11,570 bases of DNA from a virus (lineage: Duplodnaviria > Heunggongvirae > Uroviricota > Caudoviricetes), in IMG/VR virus record IMGVR_UViG_2778261346_000008, positions 1 through 11,570 of that record. One strand, given 5' to 3'. The notes beneath the pieces were generated by a model. The model was not told the DNA's origin, did no database searches, and worked only from the letters and a program-made list of their open reading frames with translations. Below, piece after piece: positions 1 through 6,097 of this stretch. Every line of letters starts with the position of its first letter. The first letter of the stretch is position 1. Made by a program: the position numbers and the translations under genes.

Positions 1-105
1 GACGAAAATTTAACGACAGGCTATCTATGAACCAGCTACCTCGCCGTGCGCTTTCGCGTTATGGTCTGACTTTTCAGGGAAATATCCTTTCAGTAAACTG
101 TCAGT

Positions 106-155
106 GCCGGATGCTCACCCGTGTCCGGCGCAAGCACTCCACCTCACCCGTGGAG
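106..155 (-). other. two adjacent stem-loops sharing the loop 10-mer CTCACCCGTG (plus-strand spelling)
   Basis: GCCGGA(106-111)/TCCGGC(124-129) and CTCCAC(137-142)/GTGGAG(150-155) are perfect 6-bp inverted repeats; CTCACCCGTG occurs at 114-123 and 144-153. Lies 3' of the leftward small-gene cluster. Confidence 0.4.
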
Positions 156-194
156 AACTCCTTAATTACCAACCTTAGCTTCGTTGGTTAGCTA

Positions 195-413
195 TTAACG
201 CGGGTATGTAATCATTCTGGCAATGGTTAATGCCGCTGCTTTTTCCAGATTGGTGATATCCTGCTCCAGAGAGGACAGATTTTCAGCCTGCTTAGCCCTG
301 ACTTCATTAGCCCATTTCAGATCCTGCGCTGCATTAATTTTCTGGTGCATCCACTCATAAAGTTCATCATTGGTATAGTCTGGCGCGATGATGACGGGTT
401 CTCGTTTCTGCAT
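195..413 (-). CDS. hypothetical small prophage protein (72 aa)
   Basis: ATG at 413..411 with GAGGAA about 6 nt upstream on minus strand; TAA at 197..195; co-oriented and tightly spaced with the two small genes upstream. No family recognised. Confidence 0.55.
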   Translation of the reverse strand: MQKREPVIIAPDYTNDELYEWMHQKINAAQDLKWANEVRAKQAENLSSLEQDITNLEKAAALTIARMITYPR

Positions 414-442
414 ACTGATTCCTCGCGGTGCTGTTTCGCTTA

Positions 443-571
443 TCAGCCATTAGATTTTGCCGAACTGGAAAGCACCTGTTTAAATTCGTTGAAGCTGTGA
501 GCTTCTTCGCCTTCGGCAAGGCCTTCGAAGTATTCTTCGTAAGCCTTTTCCATGATTGTGTCGAAATCCAT
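443..571 (-). CDS. hypothetical small acidic protein (42 aa, MDFDTIMEKAYEEYFEG...), possibly YdaG-like by position
   Basis: Not in the ORF track (<60 aa). ATG at 571..569 preceded by AGGTGG; stop TGA at 445..443; start lies 1 nt after the stop of the upstream gene (TGATATG on minus strand). Confidence 0.45.
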   Translation of the reverse strand: MDFDTIMEKAYEEYFEGLAEGEEAHSFNEFKQVLSSSAKSNG

Positions 572-572
572 A

Positions 573-728
573 TCACCCACCTGAATTTCTTTCCAGCCAG
601 CGACGCGCTCCAGATTCGGTTTTAAACGTTTTGCTTTTGGTATACGTCATTGCGGTGAACGTACCGTCCTGGTTGGGGAACACGCCACATACCAGAGATT
701 CGCTGTTGCCAAGATCGATAGTATCCAT
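573..728 (-). CDS. hypothetical small protein (51 aa, MDTIDLGNSESLV...), possibly YdaF-like by position and size
   Basis: Internal ATG at 728..726 of the 78-aa track ORF has a GAGG Shine-Dalgarno about 5 nt upstream; the track start at 809 lacks a comparable RBS; stop TGA 575..573. Confidence 0.45.
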   Translation of the reverse strand: MDTIDLGNSESLVCGVFPNQDGTFTAMTYTKSKTFKTESGARRWLERNSGG

Positions 729-909
729 GCTGACCTCATTTCCCCTTAACGCCGGGGTAGCGGAACAAAAACCTGCTGCATAGTTATTAAAGTTGAACCC
801 TGCCGTCATGTTCTTACGCCTCGGGCTGGCTACTTAACCCCTGACCACTGCCTGGTAACTCGAGGTATTGCCCTGTATTGTGTGGGACGGGATGGGTTGG
901 TATGGGAAA

Positions 910-938
910 ACTATAGGAAATGCCTAATTACTTGTCAA
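910..938 (-). promoter_or_regulatory. PL-like leftward early promoter with operator
   Basis: On minus strand: TTGACA (938..933), 17-nt spacer, TATAGT (915..910). Embedded in a 21-bp element (932-952) that is the exact reverse complement of 1577-1597 on the other side of the repressor gene. Confidence 0.6.
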
Positions 939-1046
939 TAGGCTATGCCTAATAATTTGGGCGCAACCTAATAGGTGATGGTTTGTGGAAGAGGTAGTAG
1001 GAGTTAACTAACGGGAACTAGGAATTTCCCGTCGGACCATATAAGT

Positions 1047-1523
1047 TTAAGTTCCTGTCTTGGTGATGTTCTGGCTTTTCCGTTTTGATTCTTGATTTTT
1101 CAGATAGTTAGCTACCTTCATTTCCATTGCGGCAATGTAGGCGCGAACGTCATGATCAACCCAACTAGGCTCCGTAGCATTTCCAGATAAGATGAAAGCC
1201 ACAATTGCTCTTTTTTCATCAGAGGCGGCTTGATAAAGGCTGTTTATGTCTAAAAGTTCACTTTTTGTATCTGAAGTGGATGGGGTTGGTATGGGGTATT
1301 CGTTAAGCCCCCAATGCTCTGGACCAACCACATCAGAAAAGAAACGCCATAGTTCTGGAAGTTTGTCTTTACTTATCGAACCTTTCTTAATCCAGTCATG
1401 GATTGATGGTGGTTGGACTTTGAAATGACGTGCGATTTCCGCCTTTGATTTGACGGCTCCTGATGCAATTTTTTTGTTAATGGCCTGCTCTATCGCTCGG
1501 CCTAAGTCTTTACCACTAAGCAT
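1047..1523 (-). CDS. racR: cI-like prophage repressor, RacR-like (158 aa)
   Basis: ATG 1523..1521 with AGGAGA upstream; HTH-like segment AEIARHFKVQPPSIHDWIKKG near N-terminus; divergent from a Cro-like gene; flanked by inverted operator modules. Identity to Rac RacR is from memory of the sequence and the ydaS/ydaT synteny. Confidence 0.7.
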   Translation of the reverse strand: MLSGKDLGRAIEQAINKKIASGAVKSKAEIARHFKVQPPSIHDWIKKGSISKDKLPELWRFFSDVVGPEHWGLNEYPIPTPSTSDTKSELLDINSLYQAASDEKRAIVAFILSGNATEPSWVDHDVRAYIAAMEMKVANYLKNQESKRKSQNITKTGT

Positions 1524-1576
1524 TGCTTAATAGTCTCCTATGCGTATCGCGTTAGGCAATCCCTACTCTCGATGTG

Positions 1577-1620
1577 TTAGGCATAGCCTATTGACAATTT
1601 CATTAGGCTAAGCCTAATAT
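1577..1620 (+). promoter_or_regulatory. PR-like rightward early promoter with operators
   Basis: TTGACA 1591-1596, 18-nt spacer, TAATAT 1615-1620; TTAGGC half-sites at 1552-1557, 1577-1582, 1603-1608 and palindrome TTAGGCTAAGCCTAA at 1603-1617. Confidence 0.6.
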
Positions 1621-1648
1621 TGTTGCGTGTTTTTTTGGAGTTCATTCG

Positions 1649-1972
1649 ATGAAAAAAGATAACTATTCATTCAAACGAGCTTGTGCTGTTGTCGGTGGGC
1701 AATCAGCAATGGCTAGGCTTTTAGGTGTATCTCCTCCAAGCGTAAATCAATGGATCAAAGGTGTACGTCAGTTACCTGCTGAGAGATGTCCTGCGATTGA
1801 ACGAGCAACAAAAGGTGGTGTCCTGTGTGAAGAACTTCGTCCTGATGTTGATTGGACATACTTACGACGCTCGTCATGTTATTCGCAGAATATGTCGATG
1901 AAGCAACCAAATGACGAAAACGATCATACCCGAAGCATCAAGAGGCAAATGATTCATGAAAATCAAACATGA
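1649..1972 (+). CDS. ydaS: Cro/YdaS-like HTH regulator (107 aa)
   Basis: ATG 1649 with GGAG 9 nt upstream; HTH-like segment QSAMARLLGVSPPSVNQWIKG; divergent from the repressor; 3' end overlaps next gene start. Confidence 0.65.
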   Translation: MKKDNYSFKRACAVVGGQSAMARLLGVSPPSVNQWIKGVRQLPAERCPAIERATKGGVLCEELRPDVDWTYLRRSSCYSQNMSMKQPNDENDHTRSIKRQMIHENQT

Positions 1973-2381
1973 GCACATCCGCATGGCGATGAATGCCTGG
2001 GCATACCCTGATGGTGAGAAAGTTCCTGCAGCTGAAATAGCCCGGACTTATTTCGAACTGGGGATGACGTTCCCTGAACTGTACGACGACAGCCATCCGG
2101 AAGCCCTGGCCCGTAATACCCAGAAAATTTTCCGTTGGCTGGATAAAGACACCCCTGATGCTGTTGAAAAAATGCAGGCTCTGTTACCGGCGATCGAAAA
2201 GGCGATGCCGCCTTTGCTGGTGGCCCGTATGCGCAGCCACAGTTCTGAATATTACCGTGAGATCGTCGAACGGAGGGATCGGCTGGTGAAGGATGTCGAT
2301 GATTTTGTTGCGTCAGCGGTTGTTTTGTATGACCAGATGAATCGCGGCGGCCCGGCAGGGAATGCTGTGGTGATGCACTAA
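1956..2381 (+). CDS. ydaT: YdaT-like prophage early protein (141 aa)
   Basis: ATG 1956 overlapping the ydaS 3' end; size and position match the Rac ydaS-ydaT pair. Assignment by synteny and recollection. Confidence 0.6.
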   Translation: MKIKHEHIRMAMNAWAYPDGEKVPAAEIARTYFELGMTFPELYDDSHPEALARNTQKIFRWLDKDTPDAVEKMQALLPAIEKAMPPLLVARMRSHSSEYYREIVERRDRLVKDVDDFVASAVVLYDQMNRGGPAGNAVVMH

Positions 2382-2403
2382 AAGCACGGTGTTCGGGGGT
2401 TTT

Positions 2404-3366
2404 ATGAGCAGCAAGCTTCATGGTCTTGTCTGGGAAGGGTGCGCCTTCACCGGCATGATCTTATCCAGGGTGGCGGTTATGGCCCGTCTTGCAGACTACA
2501 GCAATGACGAGGGCGTGTCATGGCCTGCCATTGAAACTATCCGGCGTCAGATCGGTGCAAGAAGTGAATCCACAGTGAAATCGGCTATTGCAGAACTGGC
2601 GAAAGAGGGCTGGCTGACGAAGGAAGAGCGTAAGGTCGGTGGGCGTAATGTAAGCAATATCTATCGGCTTAATGTGGAAAAACTCGAAGCAGCTGCGGCG
2701 GCGGCGCGTGAGTCATATAAACCGAAAAGAAAAATTAGCCCGGCAAAAAATGACCCGTTAACAGTTGACCCGTCAAATATTGACCCCTCAACGGTTGACC
2801 CGTCAAATTTTGATGGATCAACTGTTGATAAAAAACTGCCGATTAGGGGGCCGATGATTGACCCCGATCCGTCAGTATTAAAACCTGATCCGTCAGATAA
2901 AAGATCTTCTTGTCCGGACGCTTCGCAACCGGACCCGCAGACGGCTGAACAGGATTTTTTAACCCGACACCCTGACGCGGTTGTGTTCAGTGCGAAAAAA
3001 CGCCAGTGGGGAAGTCAGGAAGATTTGGTGTGCGCACAGTGGATCTGGGGACGAATCGTGAGTCTTTACGAGCAGGCGGCCAGCTATGATGGCGAGATCA
3101 CTAGACCGAAAGAACCCAACTGGACAGCATGGGCCAATGACGTTCGCACAATGCGGATGCTGGATGGCAGAACTCACAGACAAATTTGTGAAATGTTTGG
3201 GCGTCTCCAGCGGGATTCGTTCTGGGTAAAAAACATCATGAGTCCGGCAAAACTCCGGGAAAAATGGGATGAACTGGTTATCCGCCTGGGGCGTATGCCT
3301 GCGCAGCGTTGCGTGAATCACATTTCTGAACCGGACACTGAAATTCCGCCGGGCTTCAGGGGGTAA
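2404..3366 (+). CDS. phage replication initiator / replisome organiser (320 aa from ATG 2404)
   Basis: Track ORF starts at GTG 2389; ATG 2404 follows a G-rich RBS. N-terminal winged-HTH-like segment (GVSWPAIETIRRQIGARSESTVKSAIAELAKEGWL), Asp/Pro-rich linker encoded by tandem 15-bp repeats, Trp-rich C-terminal domain. Confidence 0.6.
   Translation: MSSKLHGLVWEGCAFTGMILSRVAVMARLADYSNDEGVSWPAIETIRRQIGARSESTVKSAIAELAKEGWLTKEERKVGGRNVSNIYRLNVEKLEAAAAAARESYKPKRKISPAKNDPLTVDPSNIDPSTVDPSNFDGSTVDKKLPIRGPMIDPDPSVLKPDPSDKRSSCPDASQPDPQTAEQDFLTRHPDAVVFSAKKRQWGSQEDLVCAQWIWGRIVSLYEQAASYDGEITRPKEPNWTAWANDVRTMRMLDGRTHRQICEMFGRLQRDSFWVKNIMSPAKLREKWDELVIRLGRMPAQRCVNHISEPDTEIPPGFRG
2751..2840. repeat. six tandem 15-bp iterons (TGACCCGTCAA-like, each with TTGAC/GTCAA dyad) followed by an A-rich tract; candidate ori
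   Basis: Units begin at 2751, 2766, 2781, 2796, 2811, 2826; related half-repeats TGA(C/T)CCG(A)TCAG at 2858-2875 and 2885-2896. Located inside the initiator gene, as lambda ori lies inside O. Confidence 0.6.
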
Positions 3367-3406
3367 GTGTTAATTTCTGGTCATGAGGTAATTTTCAGGA
3401 GGGCTT

Positions 3407-3829
3407 GTGGCAAAAGTTTTTACACAAGAAGAGCGGGAAAAAATTAAAGGGCAGGTTGTTGAACTCGTACGCCAGAGTGGGCGCGAGACGTTACGACAAC
3501 TGGAAACTAAAACTGGGGCAACAAGATATCTGATGAGCGTTCTGGCCAGAGAGCTGGTTGCCAGTGGCGATGTATACAACTCTGGTTACGGGTTATTCCC
3601 GTCTGAACAGGCGCGTAAGGACTGGCAAAATGCCCGTAAAAAGCTCTCAAGGGCAAAGCCGAAGAAACCATCTGCGGTTGATCCGGACCTTATCTGGTCA
3701 TTACCAGATGGCGAAATACGCCGCTACGACAGGCGTCTGAACATAATCTGTCTCGAGTGCCGGAAGAGCGAAGTTATGCAGCGCGTACTGGCGTTTTATC
3801 AGGGGAATTTTGAGGAGGTGGTGCGGTGA
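3407..3829 (+). CDS. hypothetical early protein (140 aa)
   Basis: GTG start at 3407 with CAGGAGGG upstream; stop TGA overlaps the next start (GTGA at 3826-3829). Confidence 0.5.
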   Translation: MAKVFTQEEREKIKGQVVELVRQSGRETLRQLETKTGATRYLMSVLARELVASGDVYNSGYGLFPSEQARKDWQNARKKLSRAKPKKPSAVDPDLIWSLPDGEIRRYDRRLNIICLECRKSEVMQRVLAFYQGNFEEVVR

Positions 3830-4080
3830 GTGAATCAAAATGCCAGGTTAATGGCAACAAGATAGAACCATGTGCAGCACTGGCAAAGTCCCTTGAGCAT
3901 GATGCTGAATACACGATGCGAAAAGGTCTGCTGATATACAAAATCTGGAATGAGAGTTTAACTCGCGGTCCTGATTTTGTGATGTTGCGTTCCGGTGAAT
4001 TTTCTAAATTACCAGTTCGGGTTTCATTTTGTCCGTTCTGTGGTGAAAGTCTGAAAACGTGGGAGAACAGAAATGAATGA
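3826..4080 (+). CDS. hypothetical Cys-containing small protein (84 aa; CPFCG motif near C-terminus)
   Basis: GTG 3826 with GAGGAGG upstream; translationally coupled to both neighbours. Confidence 0.5.
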   Translation: MSESKCQVNGNKIEPCAALAKSLEHDAEYTMRKGLLIYKIWNESLTRGPDFVMLRSGEFSKLPVRVSFCPFCGESLKTWENRNE

Positions 4081-4384
4081 AATCAAAGAAATACCAGTAG
4101 TACGTGATGAATATGGCTGCTGGACGCATCCTGAATATGAAAAATTCTGTGACGGTCGGGAATATATTTCAACGGAAGAGTTTAACGCCTGGATGGAGGA
4201 AAATAATCTTCAATACGTCCTCTGCTTCAGAGATGAAGGATGTGCTGACCTTGATGCGTGTGATGCTGATATTTCTGCATGGGAACCGGAACGACCAGAG
4301 GGCAATGGATGGTTTATTGGTTCAATACATGACACCGAAGATGGCCCGGTTTGTGTATGGCTGAGAAATAAGGCCGAAGCATAA
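4073..4384 (+). CDS. hypothetical acidic Cys/Trp-rich protein (103 aa)
   Basis: ATG 4073 with GGAGAA upstream, overlapping the stop of the previous gene; last gene before the base-composition drop. Confidence 0.5.
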   Translation: MNEIKEIPVVRDEYGCWTHPEYEKFCDGREYISTEEFNAWMEENNLQYVLCFRDEGCADLDACDADISAWEPERPEGNGWFIGSIHDTEDGPVCVWLRNKAEA

Positions 4385-4488
4385 AGGCTATAAACCGACT
4401 AACAACTAAATACTGAAGATTTAAATCAGAAACGATTTTTATTAAATCCTTAACCGGAGGGATTCCTGCACCCTCAAATCATCAGGAG

Positions 4489-4506
4489 GCCGCCCGAAAG
4501 GGCGGT
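4489..4506 (+). other. GC stem-loop with GAAA tetraloop abutting the RBS of the next gene
   Basis: GCCGCCC (4489-4495) GAAA (4496-4499) GGGCGGT (4500-4506): 7-bp stem with one G-U; no U-tract follows; 3' arm overlaps GGTGGAG and sits 10 nt before ATG 4517. Confidence 0.45.
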
Positions 4507-4516
4507 GGAGATAATA

Positions 4517-5038
4517 ATGGGAATAACTAAAGAACGATTGTTGGAAATAGCAAACCTTAGTGATTGGGCATTAAGTGATGAGAGAATTGTTTCTCCTCAT
4601 GCTTATGAGTCAGTTACAAGTATAGAAATAACAACAATGGCTAGAATGCTGCTTGGTTATTTCAAAATAGAAAATAAAAAACAGATGGATAGTAATGTTG
4701 ATATATGTGAGATTTTAGACGATTGGGGGGCTTGGGTTGTGGCTGGTAATAGTTCTATTGATTGGCAGGAAATAGCTGATAAATATAAAAATGTTGTTCC
4801 TCATGGTAAAAAATCACGTCGTCAGTGCAGCAATGATGAAGGGCGAATTATTGACATTAGTATCCTTATGTTAGAAAGATATAAGCAACAAGAATATGAG
4901 TTAATTGTTGCTCATTTCGTGATTGGTTTATCTCTTCGTGCTATTGCAAAGCAACAAGGATGTTCAGATGGAACAATTCGTAAAAGATTGCAAAAAGCCT
5001 TAGGTTTTTTGACTGGATATATAGCAATTACCAGTTAA
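4517..5038 (+). CDS. sigma-70 region-4-like HTH protein, putative transcriptional regulator (173 aa from ATG 4517)
   Basis: Track ORF starts at GTG 4505; ATG 4517 has GGTGGAG about 6 nt upstream. C-terminus ELIVAHFVIGLSLRAIAKQQGCSDGTIRKRLQKALGFL resembles ECF-sigma/LuxR region-4 HTH; AT-rich codon usage matches the island. Confidence 0.6.
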   Translation: MGITKERLLEIANLSDWALSDERIVSPHAYESVTSIEITTMARMLLGYFKIENKKQMDSNVDICEILDDWGAWVVAGNSSIDWQEIADKYKNVVPHGKKSRRQCSNDEGRIIDISILMLERYKQQEYELIVAHFVIGLSLRAIAKQQGCSDGTIRKRLQKALGFLTGYIAITS

Positions 5039-5676
5039 GAGTCAGCGGTTTTTTTACCAGTGTAATGGTATAAGGATACTCCCATGTGTCTTACATGATA
5101 TGGAAGCGCTGTTGCTGGATGCTTTGTGATACTCTTAAAGCGGAGGGGAGAGCCTTCCGCTTCAATTTCTGCGTCCGAAACGGTCGTAGAGAAAAATTCT
5201 TTCCATTCATTGAATTTTACTGCTGATTTGTCAGACTTTATATAAATTAGAATTCCTCCATGATCGTCACGTGACGTACCCGTGCCGTAACGTTCGGTTA
5301 GCTGAATCCAGCCATTATGAATAGATTTGGGGCCTCTCCATAATTTTGCTTCACCGATCCATTCGAATTTTCCGAATTGATGTTTAACTAATAAATCAAC
5401 GTGACCGCCATGTTGAGTATCATGTTCAACATCATAAAACCTACCTTTCAGGAAATTTTTGATCGACGCTGTTAGCTCGTCCTCTCCCCACTTAGCATCT
5501 TGATAGAAGTGTTTGTCATTTTCTAAATTCTGAATAGCGTCGTCTAAATCTTCATAGAGTTGCTTTACAAAAATATTTTTGTCTGCAGCTAATTTTCTTT
5601 GAACCATTCCCCTAAATTCAGGATCCATTCTAATTAATGATTGAAGGTCTGCAGTACAGATGTTTACATCACTCAT
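5035..5676 (-). CDS. PD-(D/E)xK nuclease-like protein (213 aa), third gene of island operon
   Basis: ATG at 5676..5674 with GGAGAG 5 nt upstream, overlapping the stop of the upstream gene by 8 bp (ATGAGTGA). Motif E84, hVD94LLV, 14 residues, EWIGE109AK111. Track start at 5739 has no RBS. Confidence 0.55.
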   Translation of the reverse strand: MSDVNICTADLQSLIRMDPEFRGMVQRKLAADKNIFVKQLYEDLDDAIQNLENDKHFYQDAKWGEDELTASIKNFLKGRFYDVEHDTQHGGHVDLLVKHQFGKFEWIGEAKLWRGPKSIHNGWIQLTERYGTGTSRDDHGGILIYIKSDKSAVKFNEWKEFFSTTVSDAEIEAEGSPLRFKSITKHPATALPYHVRHMGVSLYHYTGKKTADS

Positions 5677-6097
5677 GCAGACTCTCCAAAAGACTCGAAG
5701 GAGTAAAGTATGGATAAAGATACTGGCTAAAATTATCAACCAATTCGCCAGTTTCTGGATGGTAAAAACTTCCTGTGTCTAAAGCATAGGAAATAAGATC
5801 ATCTTCAACTGGTATTGGTTCTTCCGTTAAATTATCAATGTATTGAAAATGCATATCCAATAGATGTGCTTTATAGCTAGATAAATAATCAGTTGCTTTT
5901 ATTAGCAGGATATAGTCATCTTTCGTATCAGTTAGATAGGTTAAACCATTGATAAGGGTTTTGTATGTAAAGTGATTGATATTTTTAGCATCTTTACTAA
6001 CCAGAAAAAGAAAAAGATCACGACACACACTGCGAACAGGATCATTAAAATCCTGCTCTATTTGCGTGATAATGTCGTGATATATACTCTTTTTCAT
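5669..6097 (-). CDS. hypothetical acidic protein (142 aa), middle gene of island operon
   Basis: ATG 6097..6095 overlaps the stop of the upstream gene (ATGA); weak own RBS, consistent with translational coupling; no recognisable motif. Confidence 0.6.
   Translation of the reverse strand: MKKSIYHDIITQIEQDFNDPVRSVCRDLFLFLVSKDAKNINHFTYKTLINGLTYLTDTKDDYILLIKATDYLSSYKAHLLDMHFQYIDNLTEEPIPVEDDLISYALDTGSFYHPETGELVDNFSQYLYPYFTPSSLLESLHE

Follow-up and report, generated by a model that had tools for sequence, protein, structure and literature searches.

What does a small, acidic protein do when its gene sits between two larger ones and shares start and stop codons with both? The question is raised by gene B, the middle one of three minus-strand genes (A, B, and C) in the 11,570-nucleotide stretch of DNA analyzed here (IMG/VR virus record IMGVR_UViG_2778261346_000008, positions 1 to 11,570; hereafter the window), which is part of an Escherichia coli lambdoid (Rac/Qin-like) prophage. 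An earlier note on this DNA had proposed that B is an adaptor or antitoxin-like regulator of the neighboring nuclease-like protein, an interpretation that is partly supported by our analysis. The reading we favor, at about an even chance, is that B couples a sensor to a nuclease, probably holding the nuclease in check, in a mobile and mostly prophage-borne three-gene system. This model is based on the constant pairing of B with C, the exchangeable module upstream of B, the use of C as an effector in proteins of the STAND type, and the fast evolution of A.

B and C Form an Invariant Unit With an Exchangeable Upstream Partner

Loci related to the cassette were fetched with a profile of C, and the sample hence consists of relatives of C. 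The genes A, B, and C occur in that order in 45 of 57 genome loci, in Alpha-, Beta-, and Gammaproteobacteria, Cyanobacteria, and one Flavobacteriaceae metagenome-assembled genome (MAG). Among IMG/VR viral contigs the triad is present in 56 of 61, and the remaining five are cut by a contig end, such that it is complete in all untruncated cases (56/56). The 12 genome loci without the full triad comprise four contig truncations, four cyanobacterial loci, and four loci that lack A and carry B fused to another protein. In genome and viral loci together, a B domain lies directly upstream of every untruncated free-standing C examined. B and C are therefore an invariant unit whose upstream partner can be exchanged, which is the pattern expected of a subunit that couples a variable module to a constant effector.

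The domain found in C is also used elsewhere. In cyanobacteria it forms the C-terminus of proteins of approximately 1100 amino acids (aa), with neither A nor B nearby, and a Pfam scan of one of them (L023) identified NACHT and HEAT repeats before the C domain. Because the domain terminates such NACHT-HEAT proteins, C appears to behave as an effector module. The NACHT-fused versions match the C profile only from position 27-33 onward, leaving the first ~30 positions of free-standing C unmatched. Divergence within the cassette points in a compatible direction: of 48 distinct triads, 43 have A as the gene lowest in identity to the window and 44 have B below C, a ranking (A > B > C) that would fit a fast-evolving sensor and a conserved effector.

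Could B simply be a type II antitoxin or immunity protein that neutralizes C as its toxin, with A as an accessory and no adaptor role at all? Free-standing C never occurs without B in the loci examined, B is small, acidic, and encoded directly upstream of C with overlapping codons, which is the usual antitoxin-toxin order, and acidic nuclease inhibitors such as barstar and the colicin immunity proteins are well established. We nevertheless find this explanation unlikely, given that a third gene is kept in fixed order in the genome loci and in all evaluable viral loci (45/57 and 56/56, as above), that the C domain occurs without B in the NACHT fusions, that precisely in the loci missing A the B domain is joined to large N-terminal modules of unrelated kinds (unexpected for a free and labile antitoxin), and that its winged helix, described below, does not have the basic surface expected for autoregulation. 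Type II antitoxins are also recognized by a two-gene operon and by a match to a known antitoxin family, neither of which was found for B, the latter in searches with B and 121 family members. The earlier suggestion thus divides into two parts: the adaptor role is favored by the fixed B-C pair and the exchangeable upstream module, while a classical antitoxin-like regulator that binds DNA is not supported, given the acidity of the wing and of the first part of the recognition helix and an operon of three conserved genes, not two.

Co-occurrence and fusions would also fit a positive role, in which B is a cofactor that folds or assembles C, or recruits it to a target recognized by A, such that loss of B would leave the system inactive; these data show coupling but not its direction. 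Winged helices are, moreover, assembly modules in JetB, Scc1-C, ORC2, and BrxC. On the other hand, the C domain is found in NACHT-HEAT fusions that contain no B domain, which implies that B is not needed for the fold of C, and an upstream position with overlapping codons is seen more typically in inhibitor-effector pairs, although this last point is a weak one. A positive cofactor seems to us rather improbable.

Gene B Encodes an Acidic Winged-Helix Protein Unlikely to Bind DNA

Gene B is a genuine gene. A run of 142 open codons has a chance probability of P ~2.7e-5 per frame at the local composition, and when the surrounding 1 kb was shuffled 1000 times, an open stretch as long as B arose, in any frame, only twice. 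The earlier description of the protein as rich in D, E, and Y is also borne out: it has an isoelectric point (pI) of 4.60, 23 D+E against 10 K+R, and a net charge of -13, with D (10.6%), Y (8.5%), and L prominent in its composition. Acidity is general in the family, with a median pI of 4.8, a median charge of about -10, and 57 of 58 related loci encoding a B with a pI below 6.

The family is large. A profile search of 1.84 billion representatives recovered 277 clusters at 50% identity from several phyla, nearly all of 125-150 aa; a word-indexed search with B returned 7 relatives only. Neither B itself (no significant match in Pfam, NCBIfam, or PADLOC) nor 121 family members compared with Pfam (scattered chance matches only) could be assigned to a described family. 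Sequence and profile searches of the PDB gave nothing usable for B, the best match being sigma region 4 with an E-value of 0.23, which we judged to be due to chance. Foldseek comparison with viral structures (BFVD) returned uncharacterized proteins only, and tblastn searches with B gave no match in INPHARED phages and two weak matches in plasmids.

The AlphaFold2 model of B, with a predicted local distance difference test score (pLDDT) of 95, is a single winged helix followed by a loop with the motif HPxTGE. By its topology and its superposition on known domains, B belongs to the winged-helix fold superfamily. The top structural matches are JetB, Scc1-C, ORC2, and BrxC, with ~83 of 142 residues aligned at an identity of at most 19%. 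The family signature can be written HPxTGE...F...YF.PS; across 121 members P114 of the loop is invariant, H113 is conserved in 92% and G117 in 97%, and H113, G117, L80, and F131 are each at least 90% conserved.

Winged-helix regulators of the MarR, Fur, or GntR kind contact DNA through a basic recognition helix and wing. B could be a transcriptional autoregulator or a subunit that targets the nuclease to DNA, in favor of which its faint resemblance to the sigma region 4 profile (E 0.23) may be cited. The surface of the domain speaks against it. At the level of sequence, B does not have the basic recognition helix or wing of a DNA-binding winged-helix regulator: in the family, D or E accounts for 55-81% of the residues at wing columns 88-93, where K/R is almost absent; the recognition helix likewise begins with an acidic stretch (residues 59-64), and conserved basic positions do not occur there; and the net charge is -13 here and about -10 as the family median. 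With acidic residues at both of these sites, DNA binding by B is unlikely, and we consider a DNA-binding regulator very improbable, the least likely of the explanations. A surface of this kind would fit better with a protein-binding or DNA-mimicking role.

Overlapping Start and Stop Codons Tie B to Both Neighbors

B is bracketed by overlapping start and stop codons, as had been noticed, with a 4-nt overlap (ATGA) at the A-B junction and an 8-nt overlap (ATGAGTGA) at the B-C junction. The argument that such an arrangement ties the dosage of B to that of its neighbors is sound, but it is weak evidence when taken alone. C has its own GGAG, and upstream of B there is a weak AGG only. The B-C overlap is present in 44 of 58 related loci, a gap of 0-5 nt is found in 13, and 23 nt separate the two in an FtsZ fusion described below. 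The A-B junction is looser, ranging from -23 to +44 nt across related loci.

The B-C overlap depends on where C begins. The PGAP/RefSeq annotation places the start at an internal Met 16 codons later (197 aa; the difference corresponds to window positions 5629-5676), which would abolish the overlap. All 38 homologues in the alignment, however, have an equivalent of the MSDVN start, and C is matched by the PHROG profile from residue 1. Because the homologues and the profile agree, the longer start (213 aa), and hence the overlap, is the better call. The start given by PGAP is too late, and it hides the codon overlap in the current annotation, where all three genes are called hypothetical.

Fusions of B to Host Proteins as Possible Bait-Type Sensors

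In the four genome loci that lack A, the B domain forms an in-frame fusion with a protein of housekeeping type, and a C gene follows (Table 1). Two of the partners are full-length EF-Tu, one is FtsZ joined through a linker, with the FtsZ C-terminal peptide (IPEFLRRLAN) kept after B, and one is ribosomal protein S3. The fused B domains align with free-standing B, and the EF-Tu and FtsZ fusions retain the HP of the signature, which the S3 fusion preserves only loosely. None of these genes lies in its customary place, as the EF-Tu, FtsZ, and S3 fusions are all outside the str, tufB, and dcw operons. Their neighbors include an HD-associated protein, a MORC-like ATPase, a phage integrase, an IS110 transposase, and an S24 repressor-like gene; no tRNA genes were found near the fusions at the three loci scanned (L058, L065, and L067).

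A further variant, from a metagenome (P0111), has a 155-aa domain fused to B and also keeps the HP. We had guessed by eye that its N-terminal domain is PIN-like, but this was unsupported by Pfam, by phmmer against the PDB, or by comparison with the profile of A. On the short contig of this variant (L012, positions 1-252), the gene upstream of the fusion ends in a DUF3696 domain, which is found at the end of AAA-type ATPases and would hint at another type of sensor.

EF-Tu, FtsZ, and ribosomal protein S3 are essential host proteins that are bound or modified by phages, and the copies fused to B may be bait or decoy sensors. More generally, and more tentatively than for the coupling role as such, B and its PD-(D/E)xK partner could be a portable coupler-plus-executioner that is attached to various baits, commonly A and, in some Alphaproteobacteria, extra copies of EF-Tu, of FtsZ with the C-terminal peptide by which it binds partners, or of S3, such that phage factors hitting translation or division would trip the nuclease. 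We regard this as possible. If true, the EF-Tu, FtsZ, and S3 fusions would represent a testable form of bait-type sensing of phage takeover factors, and would indicate which host proteins are attacked by the phages of those bacteria.

The Flanking Genes: A Candidate Nuclease and a Proposed Sensor

Gene C is predicted to encode a nuclease of the PD-(D/E)xK type. Across 38 homologues the residues E65, D66, H85, G91, H92, D94, E109-A110-K111, and Q125 are invariant, and D86 is at least 90% conserved; of these, E65, D94, E109-A-K111, and Q125 make up the PD-(D/E)xK-type motifs. C matches PHROG 9664 and, weakly and over the catalytic core, the PADLOC entry PDC-S54 (E 0.0016); one source labels a homologue as "restriction endonuclease." There was no significant match in Pfam or NCBIfam, and the best result of a profile search against PDB sequences (Rab21, E 0.02) was judged to be due to chance.

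Gene A encodes a protein of ~360 aa for which no significant Pfam, NCBIfam, or PADLOC match was obtained, and PDB searches gave nothing usable. No NTPase (nucleoside triphosphatase) motif or match was detected in A, nor did it match JetA. Its structural resemblance to RdgC is weak (root-mean-square deviation 7 Å, 9% identity), and it does not belong to the RdgC family as defined by PF04381 and the ring-forming fold. The most conserved stretch of A (window positions 6322-6442, residues ~250-290) reads TSDGNTSSLKLKP...CLR.D.YHH.GE.ASPILTK. The same residues are the lowest-confidence part of the AlphaFold2 model, with a pLDDT of 52-69, and they could serve as an interface or bind a ligand, becoming ordered on binding.

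A Possible Sensor-Coupler-Effector Mechanism

How might the three proteins work together? In the coupling model that we favor, the overlapping start and stop codons would cause B to be made in fixed proportion to its neighbors, and the acidic surface of its winged helix would bind protein and not DNA. B would tether the nuclease C to the sensor, probably in an inactive state, and a candidate docking segment is the first ~30 residues of free-standing C, a part to which the NACHT fusions show no match. A phage-derived trigger would then engage the sensor and C would be released or activated, and the resulting cutting of nucleic acid would stop the phage or the infected cell.

Several observations weigh against this model and its extension to baits. 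Physical contact between B and C, and between B and A, is inferred, and the same is true of the inhibition (as opposed to activation) of C by B, of nuclease activity, and of an anti-phage function. The assignment of C to the PD-(D/E)xK type comes from motifs. A search of PADLOC-DB v2.0.0 gave no match for A or B and only the weak PDC-S54 match for C, such that a defense function rests on context; in that context, the immediate neighbors in genome loci are heterogeneous and many of them are housekeeping genes. All three proteins are somewhat acidic, and simple charge complementarity of B with a basic partner is hence not evident. Furthermore, the match of B in the S3 fusion is modest (hhalign probability 79%), and the fusions to host proteins amount to three or four independent events, all within the Alphaproteobacteria.

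Relationship to Known Systems

The logic proposed for the cassette has a precedent in PARIS (AriA-AriB), a two-gene system carried by phages, satellites, and prophage hotspots in which an ABC-ATPase sensor sequesters a Toprim nuclease effector and releases it upon encountering a phage protein. The proposed cassette would share with PARIS a nuclease sequestered by a sensor, and it shares the small operon and carriage by phages; it differs in that A is without an NTPase, an extra winged-helix subunit is present, the effector is of the PD-(D/E)xK type, and PADLOC gave no match to PARIS. Barstar, the colicin immunity proteins, and type II antitoxins resemble B in being small and acidic, in adjoining a nuclease gene, and in being translationally coupled to it. 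B, however, folds as a winged helix extended by the HPxTGE element, unlike barstar or the Im proteins, is accompanied by a third conserved gene, occurs also as the C-terminal domain of large fusions, and has no basic surface for autoregulation.

The winged helices of KITE and kleisin proteins (JetB of Wadjet, the C-terminal domain of Scc1, Nse1) act in protein-protein assembly and not in sequence-specific DNA binding, and JetB is part of a nuclease-containing defense complex. JetB nonetheless carries winged-helix domains in tandem and is partnered by an SMC ATPase and a kleisin, whereas B is a single domain; no SMC or kleisin match was found among the neighbors of the cassette, and B is not a member of the KITE proteins. 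STAND/Avs NTPases share with the cassette the C domain, which is the C-terminal effector of the cyanobacterial NACHT-HEAT proteins. The cassette differs from them in having no NTPase, and its regulation would be split over A and B in place of NACHT oligomerization.

Plant immune receptors with integrated decoys (NLR-IDs, such as RRS1-WRKY) offer a parallel for the fusion loci, which join the B-C module to copies of EF-Tu, FtsZ, and S3 in what looks like a bait-effector architecture. An integrated decoy has been hypothesized for bacterial NLR-like proteins, e.g., bNACHT11 (PMC11702601). The variants described here differ in being without an NLR/STAND module, the putative bait being placed on a small winged helix with a separate nuclease; in the window, moreover, the upstream module is A and not a recognizable copy of a host protein. 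If true, the bait reading would provide a bacterial counterpart of the plant integrated-decoy receptors without any NLR/STAND NTPase.

We found no publication that names the cassette in searches by accession, by context, or by decoy, EF-Tu, or FtsZ, although it may already have a name. The region STM14_3218-3220 of Gifsy-1 (PMC9879122) was considered as the same cassette and rejected, because its genes differ in size (840, 309, and 663 bp) and the first of them is ParA-like. The cassette is a candidate for an unnamed defense system with a new adaptor family. If true, a widespread and unnamed adaptor domain would be present in the well-studied pathogen E. coli E2348/69 and in >2000 collection blocks, mostly from Salmonella.

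Genomic Context and Distribution

The cassette segment has a guanine-cytosine (GC) content of 33-39%, compared with ~50% in its flanks, and lies in the window among genes of the nin region (DUF968, RusA, Q). In other lambdoid prophages of E. coli and Salmonella it is located between a Q gene of the PF06530 family and the lysis genes, oriented toward Q and against the direction of late transcription. These are moron positions, antisense to phage transcription. The PF06530 Q gene appears to travel with the cassette, and the two look like a block imported from a lambdoid phage that carried the cassette between Q and lysis genes. A second, unrelated Q antiterminator gene (PF03589) is present further downstream in the window, at 9568-10389. 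A promoter scan upstream of A found no convincing sigma-70 site.

The location among nin-region genes suggests another explanation, in which the cassette is a phage module for recombination, repair, or replication control, composed of an RdgC-like DNA binder and a nuclease, with B as a small structural subunit and no role in defense. The resemblance of A to RdgC is, however, weak (see above), and the cassette is antisense to both the early and the late operons and much lower in GC, as morons typically are. Copies are also found outside phages, beside integrases and restriction-modification genes, the C domain is the effector domain of NACHT proteins, and there would be no reason for a recombination module to carry fusions to EF-Tu, FtsZ, and S3. 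We regard a role of this kind as distinctly unlikely.

Beyond the lambdoid prophages, the cassette lies beside rpoD in Vibrio, with an integrase nearby, and a distant metagenomic member adjoins two D12 methyltransferase genes. Some other loci have integrases, restriction-modification methyltransferases, retron reverse transcriptases, or other defense matches nearby. The cassette is thus carried by phages and by islands, and the association with defense in the neighbor-gene scan is only suggestive.

Within E. coli, the cassette of the window is 99.9-100% identical to that of strains including E2348/69, and the cassette is present in 26 of 5426 complete genomes. Two Salmonella enterica loci (L131 and L132, positions 6001-8159) carry a version of ~50% identity, encoding proteins of 365, 140, and 211 aa, between a PF06530 Q gene and holin genes and in antisense orientation. 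This ~50%-identical version is listed in >2000 collection blocks, mostly from Salmonella, and the cassette is therefore far more common than the E. coli genomes suggest.

Table 1. Positions of the cassette genes, their junctions and protein features, and of variant loci (window coordinates unless a locus is named)
Feature	Position	Strand	Details
Gene A	6094..7191	-	363-365 aa; start GTG 7191 or ATG 7185 (PGAP); proposed sensor module
Gene B	5669..6097	-	ATG start, TGA stop, 142 aa; acidic winged helix with C-terminal HPxTGE element
Gene C	5035..5676	-	213 aa; PD-(D/E)xK-type candidate nuclease, proposed effector
A stop/B start overlap (ATGA)	6094..6097	-	4 nt; TGA of A at 6096..6094; read from sequence
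B stop/C start overlap (ATGAGTGA)	5669..5676	-	8 nt; ATG of C at 5676..5674; read from sequence
GGAG Shine-Dalgarno of C, inside 3' end of B	5684..5687	-	7 nt before ATG at 5676
Winged-helix core of B	5807..6040	-	residues ~20-97
Acidic wing of B (IDNLTEEPIPVEDD)	5798..5836	-	residues 88-100
Signature loop of B (HPETGE)	5744..5761	-	residues 113-118
Q-type antiterminator gene (PF06530)	4505..5038	+	Pfam E 3e-31; GC 0.34; convergent with C, 4-nt overlap with C stop
EF-Tu::B, Litoreibacter roseus	L065:4191-5909		full-length EF-Tu, then C
EF-Tu::B, Sulfitobacter MAG	L067:4209-5909		full-length EF-Tu, then C
FtsZ::B, Asticcacaulis	L058:4109-5995		FtsZ + linker, FtsZ C-terminal peptide IPEFLRRLAN after B, then C
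S3::B, Nioella	L069:1486-2547		ribosomal protein S3, then C; hhalign probability 79%, E 1.7e-5
Cyanobacterial NACHT-HEAT-type proteins ending in C domain	L023:3298-6549; L035:2917-6546; L050:3100-6549		
Probable fragment of the cyanobacterial NACHT-HEAT::C type	L027:5533-6546		

Just beyond the upstream end of the cassette there is a gene for a type I toxin of the Hok family (7475-7687, plus strand), which is annotated as hokD in E2348/69, and it is followed by a strong terminator-like hairpin (7756-7773). A YdaT-family toxin-like gene and a DUF977 gene (window positions 1956-2381 and 3407-3829) belong to the early-right operon; both are typical of Rac-like prophages and unrelated to B.
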